Assembly: GCA_000004695.1 (NCBI GenBank)
Contig: CM000152.2
Location: 1,888,001 to 1,952,000, forward strand
DNA from: Dictyostelium discoideum
Lineage: Eukaryota
Length of the DNA: 64,000 nt
Direction of reading: 5' to 3'
Positions 33,668-42,827 of this stretch are shown piece by piece. A program made the translations under genes and the position numbers. The notes below the pieces were generated by a model. It made no database searches, had not been told where the DNA came from, and was given only the letters and a program-made list of their open reading frames with translations. Every line of letters begins with the position of its first letter. Positions within the stretch are counted from its first letter, which is position 1.

Positions 33668-36569
33668 ATGTATCATATTATTTCGTCAAACATAAATAAT
33701 ATTAATAATAAATCAAATAAACCGAATGATAATAAAAATGATAAAACTAAATTTAATTCAAAGATCTTAGTGATTGTATTGATTGGTATAATATTCCATG
33801 CAGTATTCACATTAAGTATTTTTGATATCTATTTCAGATCACCATTAGTACATGGGATGACACCACATCCTATTAATTTACCAGCTCCAGCAAAAAGATT
33901 AGTTTTATTTGTTGGTAAATATTTAATATTACTATTCCACACCAACCCCTTTAAATTTTTAAAATTAAATAAATAATCATTTTGCAATAAAATACTAATA
34001 ATATTTTCATTTTTTTTGGAAAAAAAAAAAAAAAAAAAAAAAAAATAAAAATATTGGATTCCGATTTACATTTATGTATCGTTTTGGAAAAAAAAAAAAA
34101 AAAAAAAAAAAGCTGATGGATTAAGAGCAGATAAATTTTTTGAAATTGATGAAAATACAGGTAAATCTAGATCACCATTTTTAAGAAATATAATTGAAAA
34201 TAAAGGAACATGGGGTATTTCACATACAAGAGTACCAACAGAGACAAGACCAGGACATGTTGCATTGATAGCAGGTTTCTATGAAGATGTTAGTGCGGTT
34301 ACAAAGGGATGGAAAGCGAATCCCGTAGAATTTGATCATCTTTTCAATGAAACTACCTATTCATTTGGTTATGGTAGTCCAGATGTTTTACCAATGTTTT
34401 CAGAAGGTGTACCACATATGCAATCAGAATCCTATCCAGAGGAAGCAGAGGATTTCGCATCAGATGCATCAAAATTGGACACTTGGGTATTTGATAAAGT
34501 TCAACAATTACTATTAAATGCCTCAACCAATGATCAAGAATTGAACAGAAAGTTACGTTCAGATAAAGTATCAATATTCTTACATTTATTAGGTTTGGAT
34601 ACAAATGGTCATGCATATAGACCAAATTCAAAGGAATATTTTGATAATATTGCTTTGGTAGATAGAGGCATTGAAAAGATAGTAAAGTTAATCGAAGATT
34701 TCTATGGTAATGATGGTAAGACAGCATTTGTTTTCACTGCAGATCATGGTATGAGCAATAGAGGTTCACATGGTGATGGTGAACGTGCAAACACAGAGAC
34801 ACCATTAGTCGTATGGGGTAGTGGTGTGAGAGGTCCGTTATCATCAGATCTTCAAATGGAGAGAATTGCATCACTTCGTGGCAAAGCAAAGGAGATGTTA
34901 CCAGTTAATGTAGAAACACCAACCAATTGGAAACTATCATCATTGTTCCGATCAGATGTATCACAGGCCGATATTGCACCATTGATGACCTCATTGTTGG
35001 GTGTGCCAAGTCCATTGAATTCAGTGGGTGTATTACCCACCGAAATCTTATCCGAAGATACACCACAATATACAACTGCTGCATTACGTGCAAATACCTT
35101 ACAAATTTGGGAGATGTACAAAATTAAATCTTCCTCTAAACAGCAAAGTACCCTCATATTCTTTTCACCATTCACAAAGTTAAGCGATGCCGATAGAATG
35201 TTTGAAAGAATTGAGCAACATATTAGCCTCTCACAATGGGAAGATGCACAAATCCTATGCCATCAAATGATCGATCTCTGTTTAATGGGTTTAAATTATT
35301 TCCAAACCTATGACCGTCCCTTTCTTATGACCGTAATTACAATGGGTTATTTTGGTTGGATCATTACACTCTCACTTTATGTATTAAACAATTATACCTC
35401 AATTGGCATAGAGAATTGTAATCAACAGAAATTAAGCACACAAATGAAAAGATTCAAAACTTTATCAAATTATTTAATCTTTATCGAAAGTATTGCATTG
35501 GTTGGATTCTTATTGGCAACTGATGCTCCATTACTCTATTATCTCTATTGTGTGTTTTTAGTATTGTTTTGGGCGAAAACCATTCCATCGAATATTGTAC
35601 CATTATATATTTTCATTTGCGATTCTTTCTCACAAGTCTCTTCAACTCGTGGTCATTTCATCAATACAAATAATAGCGCAAACCTTTCAATCATAAAGAA
35701 TTTCATCATATTATCAGTCTCTGCCATCTCTGTTATGGAGTTATTGGTTGTCTCTTATTTCCATCGTGGTGTACTCTCTTTGTTATATCAAATTTTAGGT
35801 GTAGTATCTGTGTTTTTCTTTTACAATCGTTCTGGTGCTGGTAAAACTTCAACTTTATTAAAATCACTTTGGCTCATATCTTGCCTTTTAATGTCAATTT
35901 TCCCATCATTACCAATCGATTATGGTAGTGATACAAAATTGGTTTGTTTTGGTGGTATTTTAATTTCAATTTTAGGTGTTTTAACAAGTTTATTTAAATT
36001 TAGAAATAATTCAAAACAACAACAACAATCATCATCATCATCTCAACAAAAACTACAAAAATCAAAGAAAAATCAAATTATAAATTCAATTTTAATCATA
36101 TCAATTTTATTATCAAGTTTCATAGTTTATACTACAGATTCATCATTAGAGAAAAAGATTGGTTTACCATTCATTAATCAACTCTTAAGTTGGATCTTAT
36201 TGGTATCAGGTGTTCTCATTTTAGCAATCTATAGAGGTAAAGGATTTTATGACCATTGGACTTTCTTATGTCTTAGTCTTTCAATTCCATTCCTTTTATT
36301 ATCAATCTCTTATGAAGTACTCTTTTTTGGAAATTTAATTTTAAATTTAACACTTTGGATGTATTTTGAATTAAAGGTTGATAATGATCATACAATTCCA
36401 AAATTAGTTTCAATAACTCCAAATTCTGAACCTTCAACTTCTCTTTCTTTCTCAAAATCTGCTTCAAAATCAAATTTAATGAATATTACTCAACATGATA
36501 TCAGAAGAGCTATATTTTATGTATGTATTTTTTTAAATAATGAAAAGAAAAAAAGTAAAACAAAATATT

Positions 36570-36625
<56 letters not shown>

Positions 36626-37073
36626 ATAGATTTTCTTTTGCTATGTAGGATTTTTTGGAGTTGGTAATATCGCAAGTATAAGTAGTTTTGAAATTTCATC
36701 AACTTATAGATTTACAACCATTTTTAGACCATTTTTAATGGGTGCATTATTATTGGTAAAGATTTTCATTCCATTATTATTGGTAGCAATTTCATTCTCT
36801 TTGTTGAATAACAATTTGAATGTTCCAAGACCTGGTAGTTTCTTAATTGTAATTGCCTTAACCGATATAATGAGTATCAATTTCTTTTTCTTGGTTAAAG
36901 ATACTGGTAGTTGGTTAGAAATTGGTGTTAGTATTAGCCATTATGCAATTTCAAACGCTTTTATTATACTTCAATTATTATTATTCGCCGTTTCCGCTTT
37001 ATTAGTACCAACAACATTAAAATATATTAATAATAATAGTAATAATAATAACAATACAATAAAATCAAAATAA
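33668..37073 (+). CDS. pign: GPI ethanolamine-phosphate transferase 1 (PIG-N/MCD4-like). Three exons: 33668..33914, 34113..36520 and 36630..37073, about 1032 aa.
   Basis: The N-terminal TM is followed by '[18 protein letters not shown]...AKRLVLFV|[11 protein letters not shown]' (sulfatase-like metal site split by the intron). '[19 protein letters not shown]' and '[15 protein letters not shown]' are present, as is the C-terminal multi-TM '[41 protein letters not shown]'. Donors are GTAAAT and GTATGT. Confidence 0.8.
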
Positions 37074-37208: not shown

Positions 37209-38032
37209 TTATTTGTTTTCTTTTAATTTTTTAGAAATTACTTCACTCCATTGTTGAACTTTAATATTTTTAGATAAAAGTTCTTCTAAAATTTCAGAAG
37301 AATTAATATTACAAGGTAAACCTTTAGTCATTGCATCAGTTTTAATGGCAAGATTCATATAATAGAATGCAAACTTTTTGACAGATATAATATCATCTTC
37401 ATCCAATGGTGGAGGTGGTGTTGTTGGTTGTTGAGCTGGTGAAGTTGTGGTGGTTGTAGTGGTTGTAATTTTACTACTACTTGGTTTTTTACCAAATACA
37501 AATTTATGTGATGCTTGAGAGGAGGATGAAGAAGATGAAGATGATGATGACGAAGATGATGATTTTTGTAATTTTGTTAATTCATCTTGTAATTTTGATT
37601 TTTCTTTTTCTAATTGATTAATTTTTGATTCTTGATCTTTACATTTTTTCAAAGCATTATCTAAATCTTTTTTTTGATTTTTTAAACTATTTTTCTTGGA
37701 ATTCTTATCATTTGATGAAGAGAGTAGAATTGAAATTTCTGCTTGTACTCTTTCCAATTGTAAATCGGCATCAGTTTTCTCTTTTTTTAATTGTTCATTT
37801 TCTTGTCTAAATTGTTGGATTTCTAATTGATGTTTTTCAAACTCTAATTTATGATTTTCCAATAATGATTTTCTAGTTTGTTCAAATTCTTTCATTTGAT
37901 TCTTTATATCTTCTCCTAGTTTATTATTGTTAACCTTTAATTTTTGACATTCATCATTTGTTGATTTTAATTCAATTCTAGTTGTTTCTATATCTTTTTC
38001 AAGTTTAACTTTAACTTTATTCAATTCATCTC
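37209..38032 (-). CDS. Coiled-coil protein exon of about 274 aa ending at stop 37209. No ATG-initiated first exon was found, so it is either the 3' exon of the upstream RhoGAP gene or needs an unidentified 5' exon.
   Basis: The frame runs open from the acceptor AATAG|GA at 38033-38034 to the stop. Heptad-rich sequence 'ELNKVKVKLEKDIETTRIELKSTNDECQKLK...QLEIQQFRQENEQLKKEK' is followed by a poly-S/poly-T stretch and a C-terminal globular tail. The 250 bp upstream (38040-38292) is more than 95% AT with no minus-strand ATG. Confidence 0.45.
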
Positions 38033-38241
38033 CTATTTAAATAATAAAAAAAATAATAAATATATAATTTAATAAATTAAAAAAATAATGATAATTGATA
38101 AAAAATAAAAAAAAAAAATTATAAAATATAAAAAATAATGGAAAAATAAATAAAAAAAAATAGGAAGAGTATAAAATTTTATGGTTTTTATTTATTTATA
38201 TAAAAATGTATATAGATGTATATAAATGAAATTATTTATTT

Positions 38242-38281
<40 letters not shown>

Positions 38282-38292
38282 TTATGTACAAA

Positions 38293-39715
38293 TTAATTAT
38301 TAATAGATTTGAAATTATTATTGATAACATCAGTGAAATGAAGAGTTATATTATTAAATAAATTTTGAATATTTTCAAAATTTAAATGATTGTCAATAAT
38401 GTTATCAATGTGTTGGTGAACACTATTATTATTTTTATAGAGATAGAAACAACAAATGGATAAAATGATAGGTGAGATAATAATGATTGGTAGAAAATTA
38501 TAATTTTTACTCTCTAATTCTGTTTTGGTTTGTTTTTCGGTAACATCTTTAATATCATTTTTCAATGAATTAATATCATTTGCTTGATTTTTATTTGTTT
38601 CCTATAGGAAAAAAAATAAATTTAAAATATATAAGAATTTTTGTGAATAAGGTTTTTTTAATTTTTCAATCATAATAATTATAATAATAATAATAAAAAT
38701 AATAATTACTTTAAATTCATTTAATAATTCACCTAAACTATCCTTTTCTTCAGTTAAAGATTTATTAATATCTTCAAGTTCTTGTAATTTTTGTTCCATA
38801 CTGGTACAATAAGTTTCTAAAATTGATCTCTCACGAGCTTCTTCATTCAAATGTTTCTTTAATTGTTCTATTGTTACTTTAGCATCTTCCAATTGTTCAC
38901 TTGTTGATCTCTTATCTTCTCTAATACCTAAATCAATAGCTGAAACTTGGTATAATAAAGTTTGTTTAATTTCGTATAATACATGAAATTCTTCAATCAA
39001 TACTCTTACAACTTCACTAATACTATTGGAATCTGTCATCATTGATTCTAAACTCTCTTCTTTTGGTCTTAATAATGTTGGTGAGAATACAATTGCTAAA
39101 TTTGAACTTGTCATTTTATTAATACTTGAATGTAACTATTTTTTTTTTTTTTTTTTTTTATGTTAATAATAATAAAAATTGGAAATCTAAATAATAATAA
39201 TAATATAAAAAAAAACTTACTTGAATTGTATTTAAAAATTTTAATAAAATTTGAAGTAAATCATAATTTTCTTTTGGAAGTGCAGAAAGTAATGATTTTA
39301 TGAAAGAAATTTTTGAATTCTTATCCTTAATATCAATTGAAGCTAAAAAGTTTTTATATAAATCAAAGGTTAGGAGTGGTTCATCACCATCTCTAAGGAA
39401 AGCTTTTAAAGCACCACTAACACAATGAGAATCAATCTTTGAGAAATCAATTGAATCACCCTCACCATTCTCCAATTGTTTCTTTAATTCTTTAACTTTA
39501 GTATTGTTACCTGAAATTCTGCAAATACCTTCCAACTCTATACAATTGGTTTCCAAATAATGAATTAATTGTTTTATTGCTGCTATTACAATTGCTTTTT
39601 GTTTTTTCTTTTTTTCACCTGGTTTCAATATTTTTTTAAATGTTTTTGCCATTGTTTTATCTTTATTTCTTTTTAATGTTGTTGCTTGTGGGCTTCCACC
39701 TTCTTTTGGTTCCAT
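38293..39715 (-). CDS. RhoGAP-domain protein with a coiled-coil region and a C-terminal transmembrane helix. Three exons: 39221..39715, 38710..39135 and 38293..38601, about 409 aa.
   Basis: The RhoGAP signature is 'LEGICRISGNNTKVKELKKQL...DSHCVSGALKAFLRDGDEPLLTFDLYKNFL...LLSALPKENYDLLQILLKFLNTIQ', followed by 'NKMTSSNLAIVFSPTLLR'. Exon 3 ends with the hydrophobic 'FLPIIIISPIILSICCFYLY'. Donors are GTAAGT and GTAATT, and phases were verified against ORFs 39158, 38602 and 38293. Confidence 0.65.
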
Positions 39716-40579: not shown

Positions 40580-42763
40580 TTATCTTCTATATCTATATCT
40601 TTTGAAATTAAACCAAAGATGAAGTACACCTTTATCATCGAAAACACATTTGTAACCATATTTATGAGATTTTTCCCATTCTTTTTTAACGATTTTGAAA
40701 GCAATATCTTCATAAGGTGGACCGGCACTAAATCTTAGTATACAAGTGTCTGGATTATCAGGTGATGGTGATACAAAATATTGAGGTGATTTGGTAGTAT
40801 CAATAAGATCTGGATAAAAGATATTGAATTTATAACCTCTGACAACCTTTGGAGGAGGATTATCATAATCATAATGAGTACGATTATATTTAGTCCAGTC
40901 ATAACCAGTATGTACTCTATTGAAGAATCTTGGTTTTCTTGGTCTATGTTTATCATGCCAAGCATAATATTTTTGTTCTAATGGTACTTCTAAATCAAAT
41001 TGTTCTTCGAAATCATTATCTTCATCAAATTCATCTTTAGTTTCTTTGTTTTTATAATTACTATTATTATTATTATTATTATTGTTATTATTTGTTGATG
41101 TTGATGTAGTATTACTTTGATTATTATTGTTATCATCTGTATTTTCACTGTTAAATGGTAAATTCATATCATTTGCAACACCTTTCAAATATTTCTCGGT
41201 TTCCATTTCTGAAAGTTTCAATTTAAGATTTTCTGTGAATCTTTCAGACAAGAAAGAAGATGCTTTATACATTTTCAAATGCTTTAATAAAGTTTCCCAA
41301 TATTCAACATTCATTGCAGAACCAGATTCTAATTTCTTGATAATATCAACCTCTAAATCGCATAGTTCCTTATATGATTTACCAGATAGAATTGATTTAA
41401 TATTTGGTGTCAATGAATGATGTAATGCAGTCGAATCACCAAAACCACTACCATTACCATTCCCATTACCATTATTATTGGTTTCATTATTTTTACTTTC
41501 AATTAATTGTAGTTGATAATTTGTTAATTCTAAAGCAGCATCCCAAAATTCTAAATTACTTTTATCATTATCTAAATAAGTGAATTCACGTAAACCTTCA
41601 ATTAATTCTTCAAGTTCATTAGTGGAATCTAAAGATTGAATTAACATTACAGGATCACGATTACCTCTATAGTCGAATGGTAATGATTGCATGTGAATTG
41701 CTCTATAGAGGTAATCCAATGGTTTTGAACGATTATCTAATAGACGTGATTCACAACGTTTACAAGCTTGAATGAAATGAAATTCCTCTTCTTTTTTTTC
41801 CAACTCTTCATTGTTTGACATATCTCTCATACGTTGTAAACGTTCTTTCTCTTCTTCCCAAATTTCTTTTTCCTTTTCACGTTGTTCACGTTTTGCTTTG
41901 GCCTTTTCAATTTCTTGTTGAATTTCTTCTCTTCTCTTCTTTCCAAATTTTTCATCGTATTCACTTGGTTTCATACCATCTTTAATCAACTTATCTCTTT
42001 TTGCCTTCCAAACGAATTTCTCTTGTAAATTTACATCATTGAATGGATTGGTCATATTTGAATAACCAGATAAATCTAAACCACTCTTTTTATTCTCTTC
42101 TTTTCTTTGTTTCTTTTCTAATCTTCTCTTTCTTTTCTCTTCTGGTGTTTCTCTAGCTTTTCTTTCTTCTTTTTCTTTCTTTTCTTGTTTCTTTCTTTTT
42201 CTTCTTTCTTCTTTACTCTCTTTATTTGATGTTGATGATGTTGATGTTGATGATGATGATTTTCTTTTTCTTTCATAGTCACTATCATCGCTTCCACTAC
42301 TACTATCACTATCACTATCACTATCGCTATAATCTTTTCTATTTCTTTTATAACTTGATGATTTTTTATCTCTTGATCTTGATCTTGATTTTGATCTATC
42401 TTTTTCAGAAGATGACTTTTTCTTATCTCTGGATCTTGACCTATCTCTATATTTTCTATCTCTGTCTATGTCTCTACTTCTATCTCGTTCCTCACTTCTA
42501 TCTCTATCTTTTTTATTTCTCTCCTTACTTCTATCTCTATCTCTTTCTCTATCTCTTTGGTTTTCTTTGTCTCTGCCTCTATATCTGTCCCTTTCTTCAC
42601 TTCTATCTCTGTCTCTATCCATTCTATCTCTTTCACCATCCCTATCTCTTTCTCTATCTCTATCTCGATCTCTTTCTCTATCTCTATCTTTTCCCCTATC
42701 TCTTTCTCTATCCCTATCTCTTTCTCGGTTTCTATCTCGGTCTCTATCTTTATCGTCACTCAT
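40580..42763 (-). CDS. cactin: Cactin homolog. It has an RD/RS/RE-rich N-terminus, a Cactin_mid domain and the conserved cactin C-terminal domain. Single exon, about 727 aa, with the real ATG at 42763.
   Basis: The C-terminus '[84 protein letters not shown]' is the cactin C-terminal signature. The N-terminus is '[18 protein letters not shown]...'. The ORF-track start at 42787 is a TTG. Confidence 0.8.
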
Positions 42764-42827
42764 TTTTATGAAAATATAAAAAGACAATAAAACAAATAAC
42801 CAAAAATGAAAATTAAAAAAAAAAAAA

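Follow-up and report, generated by a model that had tools for sequence, protein, structure and literature searches.

A Dictyostelium RhoGAP gene with a fused coiled-coil product and a conserved in-frame intron start that may encode an alternative, tail-anchored C-terminus

The gene considered here lies on the minus strand of a stretch of 64,000 nucleotides (nt) of the Dictyostelium discoideum genome (contig CM000152.2), referred to below as the window, and encodes a protein with a RhoGAP domain; all coordinates are positions in the window, and the gene is read on the minus strand throughout. Comparison with related species strongly supports a single gene whose product is one 611-residue RhoGAP protein, made through a splice (38511|38032) that joins the RhoGAP frame to a coiled-coil open reading frame (ORF) further downstream. 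The third intron opens with a stretch that continues the frame of the preceding exon, would encode one hydrophobic helix and then closes with a stop codon, an arrangement that recurs across the dictyostelids. The reading favoured here, with reasonable though by no means high confidence, is that of one gene with two C-termini, a soluble one when the intron is removed and a tail-anchored one when the transcript is left unspliced or is cut at an intronic polyadenylation (poly(A)) site.

The window is very rich in adenine and thymine (A+T) and the structure of the gene is dictyostelid (Table 1). In the initial annotation the RhoGAP frame was seen to close at 38293 behind a hydrophobic helix and to be followed by a coiled-coil ORF without an ATG exon, and it was proposed that a phase-1 GTAAAA donor within the third exon could be joined in frame to an AATAG acceptor. 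Read on the minus strand, the unspliced frame does run on to its TAA, and the splice brings A (38511) together with GA (38032-38031) in an AGA codon, from which the frame enters the ORF at 37209-38024 (DELNKVKV...) and yields 611 residues without an internal stop. The missing start is equally real, as there is no minus-strand ATG in the 260 base pairs (bp) between the read-through stop and the acceptor, and in exon 4 none occurs in frame ahead of codon 46. The composition of this spacer had been overstated, with an A+T content of more than 95% given where 93.5-94.0% was measured over 250-260 bp.

That both parts belong to a single protein which skips the hydrophobic segment was borne out by sequences from relatives. 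Ten full-length orthologues in public collections match the 611-residue product with a coverage of 96-100%, and come from Dictyostelium cf. discoideum (the closest relative found, with 98% protein identity), D. citrinum, D. purpureum, Polysphondylium violaceum, Tieghemostelium lacteum, Cavenderia fasciculata and Heterostelium album together with three further sequences. They share the architecture of RhoGAP domain, coiled coil and C-terminal domain, and both the alignment and the coiled coil are unbroken across the junction. A homologous A|GTAA donor and ATAG acceptor are used in three annotated models (P0001, P0004 and P0006, from D. cf. discoideum, P. violaceum and T. lacteum respectively). 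A JGI contig of 2063 bp (L008) holds a 599-residue orthologue in a single uninterrupted ORF, and its comparison with the P. violaceum locus gave four aligned blocks with all three introns skipped, which argues that it represents mRNA of a closely related species, of Polysphondylium affinity, spliced at the homologous site. The H. album locus (L007, 4714-5694) has no intron at the homologous position and its ORF passes straight from the first to the second part of the coiled coil; on comparison of the sequences this is a lineage-specific loss of the intron, which would have removed the putative short form. In the public model of the H. album gene the first intron, of 806 bp, is doubtful, and the protein is extended at its N-terminus.

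More distantly, a 2.4-kilobase Logan contig (L010, run ERR4329566, 177-2369) carries a single ORF of 730 residues (P0023) with a RhoGAP domain and the same C-terminal domain, the latter matching in a pairwise comparison with E=9e-10; identity over the RhoGAP part is 39%. The contig stems from an organism richer in guanine and cytosine (GC). The combination of RhoGAP domain, coiled coil and C-terminal domain may be older than the Dictyostelia. Since orthologues, transcript-like contigs and the intronless gene of H. album all join both parts, a separate coiled-coil gene is excluded for practical purposes. It is strongly supported by these comparisons that the coiled-coil ORF is part of the RhoGAP gene and that the default product is not tail-anchored.

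If the donor is passed over, the peptide that begins at 38511 reads SKNYNFLPIIIISPIILSICCFYLYKNNNS...KSINN and consists of SKNYN, a helix and a 47-residue tail rich in asparagine; the tail includes the peptide NNNSVHQHIDNIIDNHLNFENIQNLFNNITLHFTDVINNNFK. In the 409-residue form that would result, 19-residue Kyte-Doolittle windows (KD19) of at least 1.6 are found only at residues 340-364, with a maximum of 2.49 at residues 343-361, the maximum outside the helix being 1.19, and the N-terminus is hydrophilic and has no signal peptide. The spliced 611-residue form has no KD19 window of at least 1.6. The helix is very hydrophobic and its flanks carry no basic residues. Very hydrophobic tail anchors without basic flanks fit membranes derived from the endoplasmic reticulum (ER) better than those of mitochondria or peroxisomes, and the helix of the anchored form would fit an ER-derived membrane. 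The length of the tail beyond the helix varies widely, from 0-9 residues in T. lacteum, P. violaceum and C. fasciculata to ~34-35 in D. purpureum and ~47-48 in D. discoideum.

Conservation of the read-through was followed in seven intron-bearing genomes, which represent five lineages (groups 1, 3 and 4 and the violaceum complex). In all seven the frame that continues exon 3a (frame 0) stays open for 24-72 codons, encodes one helix (KD19 1.67-2.66) and then reaches a stop, and the other two frames are not consistently open. The homologous donors read GTAAAA, GTAACT, GTAATA, GTAACT and GTACGT, and counterparts of the helix are encoded in D. purpureum, P. violaceum, T. lacteum and C. fasciculata. 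Intron 3 is also unusual in its size, with 262-513 bp where the remaining introns of these genes measure 67-131 bp (75-92 bp for the homologues of intron 1 in the orthologues), and in every species the read-through has a higher GC content than the rest of the intron, the values for the window being 19% and 6.5%.

In an alignment of three sequences, those of the window, D. cf. discoideum and D. citrinum, the mode of evolution changes sharply within the intron (all identities are those to D. citrinum). Exons 1, 2 and 3a are 94-96% identical (95.6% for exon 3a alone) and free of insertions and deletions (indels), and introns 1 and 2 are 47% and 64% identical respectively, with many indels. The 77 nt of the read-through that encode the helix part are 100% identical and the 138 nt of the tail 94% identical, in each case without indels, and the remainder of intron 3, from the stop codon onwards, falls to 54% with 71 gap columns. 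This exon-like identity without indels indicates that the first 215 nt of intron 3 evolve like an exon, with the frame kept.

At greater distances the nucleotides of the read-through can no longer be aligned but the peptides can, namely NFLPIIIISPIILS of D. discoideum, LLLPIIFISPIVIS of D. purpureum, SNFLPFLSILVAIVSLFVYLN of T. lacteum, SNTHPLVNLLFFSSIFSLFIYLH of P. violaceum and SNLIPCVLFFAVASSFIAA of C. fasciculata. Their summed pairwise local-alignment scores gave z = 7.9, and none of 2000 composition-preserving shuffles reached the observed value, although the pairs are not phylogenetically independent. The common motif is S-N-x-(F/L)-(L/I)-P with hydrophobic residues behind it. LPII(I/F)ISPI is common to D. 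discoideum and D. purpureum, and 7 of their 12 identical residues are encoded by different codons. Over all pairs there were 54 differences at codon position 2 as against 117 and 113 at positions 1 and 3, a count that uses protein-guided alignments and is biased towards this result. A log-likelihood ratio of codon usage, trained on the long ORFs of the window, scored the read-through at +0.30 per codon in frame 0 and at -0.31 and -1.91 in the other frames, and for the tail alone the corresponding values were +0.35, -0.62 and -2.43. An Rfam scan of 37900-38750 at E<=1 gave no match, which argues that an intron-hosted small nucleolar RNA or similar RNA is not the cause of the conservation. Across the genomes compared, the in-frame helix and the stop behind it have been conserved, and the comparisons support an ORF which extends exon 3a into intron 3 and is conserved as coding sequence.

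A substantial caution comes from the ordinary introns of these genes. Introns 1 and 2 of the window gene and its orthologues can sometimes be read through as 34-56 open codons with KD19 values of 1.9-3.7; examples are intron 2 of the window (38602-38709; 35 codons in frame, KD 2.47), intron 2 of D. cf. discoideum (L003; 56 codons, KD 3.68, poly-Ile/Phe) and intron 1 of P. violaceum (34 codons, KD 1.92). Hydrophobic 'helices' read from AT-rich Dictyostelium introns are common artefacts and, since ordinary introns of this kind also read as peptides rich in Ile, Phe and Leu, a hydrophobic read-through seen in a single species could be due to chance. It was rejected as stand-alone evidence after this control, and the signal exceeds chance only in the comparison across species. 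Weakness of the donor was likewise dropped as an argument, as the intron-2 donors of these genes are also often without G at +5.

Searches for the anchored form itself were made in several ways. A profile search with the five read-through peptides and the flanking exon against 5.8 billion proteins gave no match at E<=0.001. Exact look-ups in the protein collection found neither the 409-residue protein nor the 611-residue protein nor an exon-4 protein started at Met46, and look-ups of the anchored forms reconstructed from six other genomes were also without result. A phmmer search of the 409-residue form against 1.84 billion representatives returned the known orthologues and generic RhoGAP-domain proteins, none of which ends after a homologous helix, and of two metagenome DNA scans for an unspliced, read-through version of L008 the first was without a match and the second returned only the spliced L008. 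The collections searched seem to be without sequences of the window's own organism, and the absence of the anchored form from them is thus weak evidence. The suggestion in the initial annotation that the locus encodes two isoforms has accordingly fared unevenly, with the spliced soluble form strongly supported and the anchored form indicated by comparative evidence, no transcript or protein of it having been found in these searches.

A number of observations weigh against an anchored product. Behind the helix, the 47 residues of D. discoideum and the 34 of D. purpureum exceed what is usual in a classical tail anchor, most of the 8 substitutions that separate the tails of close species are non-synonymous, and the codon-usage score of the read-through, although above that of introns (-0.55 to -1.8), is well below that of constitutive exons (~+1.0). 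Others can be counted at the same time in favour of a different explanation, namely that only the spliced 611-residue protein is made and that the conserved 215 nt act in cis without being translated, perhaps as a pyrimidine-rich intronic splicing enhancer that assists a weak donor or as some other regulatory element of RNA or DNA, the open hydrophobic frame being a by-product of T-richness. Open hydrophobic peptides are also read from the control introns; frame +1 of the stretch has no stop for 42 codons in the window and for 42-50 in some species; codon usage in the helix part alone does not separate frames 0 and +1; no transcript, EST-like (expressed sequence tag-like) contig or annotated protein of the anchored form was found for any species in the public collections searched; and H. 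album does without the intron, the loss of which makes the short form dispensable in at least one lineage. The complete identity of the 77-nt helix part in three species, with no synonymous change, could also mean constraint at the level of the nucleotides. Against an untranslated element stands the fact that frame 0 alone is open in 7/7 genomes and always ends soon after a single helix, and that at larger distances the character of the peptide and the SNxFLP motif are kept while the nucleotides are not, with identical residues often arising from different codons. Furthermore, the 215 nt lack indels where the adjoining intron is full of them, the tail clearly favours frame 0, and a splicing enhancer would leave unexplained an intron that is 3-5-fold longer in every lineage. 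A cis element of this kind is possible, if somewhat unlikely.

Two other explanations fare much worse. The hydrophobic segment could be a constitutive internal part of one longer protein, joined to exon 4 by a donor further downstream, and three public models do carry part of it as an in-frame insert, those of D. citrinum (P0002; L004 4084-4687), D. purpureum (P0003; L001 4003-4489) and C. fasciculata (P0007; L002 4116-4576). The donors these models call upon are, however, poor and not conserved, being GTTTAT in D. citrinum and GTTCAA in C. fasciculata with a 37-nt mini-exon in D. purpureum, and the GT of D. citrinum has no counterpart in the window, where AAT stands in place of AGT. No insert is present in L008, in H. 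album or in P0001, P0004 and P0006, and a membrane helix amid a continuous coiled coil is structurally implausible. An internal segment is very improbable and close to refuted already, and judging from their sequences the three models are probably mis-annotated at this junction; they are of interest mainly since gene finders judged the stretch to be coding. The remaining alternative divides the locus into two genes. The first would encode a tail-anchored RhoGAP and stop at 38293, and the second, a coiled-coil gene (37209-38032), would be transcribed independently from a promoter within the AT-rich spacer. The spacer does resemble intergenic DNA, with an A-rich AATAAA tract followed by runs of T, but no ATG is found over the 260 bp upstream of exon 4, and the first one in frame within that exon is codon 46. 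In all orthologues the alignment and the coiled coil cross the junction without a break, and a single ORF covers both parts in H. album and in two transcript-like contigs. This arrangement too is close to refuted, and hardly any probability can be left to it.

Under the favoured reading of one gene with two C-termini, the choice would be made at the phase-1 donor A|GTAAAA (38511|38510). Removal of intron 3 would give the soluble 611-residue protein, composed of the RhoGAP domain, a coiled coil of ~300 residues, a Ser/Thr/Pro linker and a three-helix C-terminal domain. Were the donor left unused, translation would continue for 72 codons into the intron, through the hydrophobic helix FLPIIIISPIILSICCFYL to the stop, and the 409-residue product would present the RhoGAP domain and a coiled coil of ~110 residues to the cytosol from a C-terminal membrane anchor. 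The switch would in this way exchange the C-terminal domain for a membrane anchor and relocate the same GAP (GTPase-activating protein) activity to a membrane. The short mRNA could arise if the last intron is retained, or if the transcript is cleaved and polyadenylated within the A-rich AATAAA tract that follows the stop. As intron 3 is the last intron in the window species, its retention would leave no exon junction downstream of the stop, and nonsense-mediated decay, by its general rules, would not necessarily act on the mRNA. In C. fasciculata there is a further intron downstream of the intron 3 homologue, which would favour the poly(A) route in that species. A-rich tracts bearing AATAAA also follow the stop in D. 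cf. discoideum and D. citrinum, and the (AAATAAAT)n tract of the window is a candidate intronic poly(A) signal region. For the short form, expression, translation, insertion into a membrane and formation of the 3' end are all inferred from the conserved reading frame. That a splice-or-read-through switch between a soluble form with a small targeting domain and a tail-anchored RhoGAP form exists and predates the radiation of the Dictyostelia is about as likely as not.

Table 1. Elements of the RhoGAP gene, given as positions in the window
Feature	Position	Strand	Remarks
Exon 1	39715-39221	-	ATG at 39715-39713; residues 1-165; first part of RhoGAP domain
Intron 1	39220-39136	-	85 bp; GTAAGT...ATAG; 8% GC; phase 0
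Exon 2	39135-38710	-	remainder of RhoGAP domain (to ~39061) and start of coiled coil
Intron 2	38709-38602	-	108 bp; GTAATT...CTATAG; 10% GC; phase 0
Exon 3a	38601-38511	-	ETNKNQ...KQTKTELE and first base of next codon; would be in both products
5' splice site GTAAAA	38510-38505	-	phase 1; proposed decision point between splicing and read-through
Intron 3, whole	38510-38033	-	478 bp
Putative alternative exon extension (5' part of intron 3)	38510-38296	-	with base 38511, 72 in-frame codons
Predicted membrane helix FLPIIIISPIILSICCFYL	38496-38440	-	residues 343-361 of the 409-residue form
Read-through stop TAA	38295-38293	-	would end the 409-residue form
Intron 3, remainder	38292-38033	-	93.5% A+T; 3' half T-rich; no ATG; acceptor AATAG
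A-rich (AAATAAAT)n tract	38283-38187	-	13 overlapping AATAAA motifs directly after read-through stop
Acceptor AG of intron 3	38034-38033	-	within AATAG
Exon 4 (last exon)	38032-37209	-	continuation of coiled coil, Ser/Thr/Pro-rich linker, conserved C-terminal domain; spliced form only
C-terminal domain	37400-37218	-	~60 residues, three helices (DEDDIISVKKFAFYYMNLAIKTDAM..CNI..W); many invariant columns
Stop codon of 611-residue form	37211-37209	-	end of exon 4

The RhoGAP domain common to both products is canonical. Residues 47-190 are recognised by the Pfam RhoGAP profile (PF00620) at E=3.2e-43 and 147.6 bits (cut-off 24.5), and the same domain is carried by all orthologues. The arginine finger R66 (AGA, 39520-39518, within EGICRISGN) and N177 (within KMTSSNLAIVF) are invariant in 11 sequences, and both are residues that we take, from p50RhoGAP, to be catalytic. 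By profile match and conserved residues the protein is a member of the RhoGAP family, with GAP activity predicted. It shares the arginine finger (GICRISGN) and the conserved MTxxNLAxVFxPTLLR motif with the RhoGAP-domain proteins of PF00620, among them the Dictyostelium 'gac' family, and the combination of the domain with a coiled coil is that of many RhoGAP proteins.

The C-terminal domain, in contrast, sets the protein apart from other RhoGAP proteins in that it has no Pfam or PDB match. The strongly conserved C-terminal block of the alignment reads DEDDIxSVKKFAFYYMxLAxKTDAM..CNI..W. An AlphaFold model of the exon-4 product has helices at 2-104 and 116-157 and a disordered region at 160-204, which corresponds to the Ser/Thr/Pro linker, and the three-helix domain that follows was modelled with a predicted local distance difference test (pLDDT) score of ~80. 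Pfam gave no match to the domain other than a sub-threshold one to Paralemmin, a sequence search of the PDB gave matches at the level of chance only, and a Foldseek search of the AlphaFold model against the PDB, in which the best E was 1.8, found no fold match for it. The domain is conserved from the Dictyostelia to the distant transcript-like contig that encodes P0023.

In the literature searches no RhoGAP anchored to a membrane by its C-terminus was found. Golgin-84, giantin, CASP and the Rab GAP TBC1D20 are tail-anchored proteins that expose a coiled coil or a GAP domain to the cytosol, and the predicted short form would resemble them in its cytosolic N-terminal catalytic and coiled-coil part, its single C-terminal helix and its want of a signal peptide. 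It has no sequence relationship to any of them, and the luminal tails would be longer in D. discoideum (47 residues) and D. purpureum (34 residues). The best-known case of such a choice is the immunoglobulin mu heavy chain, in which a splice donor competes with a poly(A) site upstream and the outcome is either the secreted or the membrane form. There, as proposed here, one donor decides between an early end of the mRNA and splicing to downstream exons, and a C-terminal membrane anchor is added or removed. The polarity would be reversed, however, as in the present gene read-through would give the anchored form and splicing the soluble one, and use of an intronic poly(A) site is in this case a proposal.

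The inner-nuclear-membrane protein Src1/Heh1 has alternatively spliced isoforms in S. cerevisiae. For Dictyostelium Src1 it has been proposed that a short form with fewer membrane spans (Src1-S) arises by intron retention (PMC11816917), and this precedent was the only relevant result of literature searches on the present Dictyostelium gene and on tail-anchored RhoGAP proteins. The two cases are alike in that they concern the same genus, in which there is little alternative splicing, and a retained intron with an in-frame stop that changes the number of membrane spans. They differ in that retention truncates Src1 and removes a span, whereas in the RhoGAP gene the retained sequence would encode the only one.

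For the gene model the outcome is one 611-residue RhoGAP protein in place of a RhoGAP and a start-less ORF. Should the anchored form prove true, it would provide a genetically tractable case in which one splice site sets whether an inactivator of Rho/Rac is fixed to a membrane or cytosolic, with a switch conserved over about the whole depth of the Dictyostelia. It would also be a rare conserved and protein-changing example of alternative processing where alternative splicing is regarded as rare and, as far as the literature searches show, the first tail-anchored RhoGAP. It would further suggest a search strategy based on unusually long introns with a conserved, in-frame 5' end. No general principle is changed.

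The gene has a convergent neighbour, a PigN-type glycosylphosphatidylinositol (GPI) ethanolamine-phosphate transferase gene on the plus strand (34265-37073), with ~135 bp between the two stop codons. Upstream of the RhoGAP gene lies a cactin-like gene on the minus strand (40580-42787), the product of which has a long N-terminus rich in Arg, Asp, Glu and Ser. In D. cf. discoideum and D. citrinum the orthologue lies between the same two neighbours, an arrangement that D. purpureum and P. violaceum do not share. A second long (AAATAAAT)n tract is found on the minus strand in the intergenic DNA upstream of the gene (40060-39940), and both tracts may be ordinary simple-sequence DNA of Dictyostelium.

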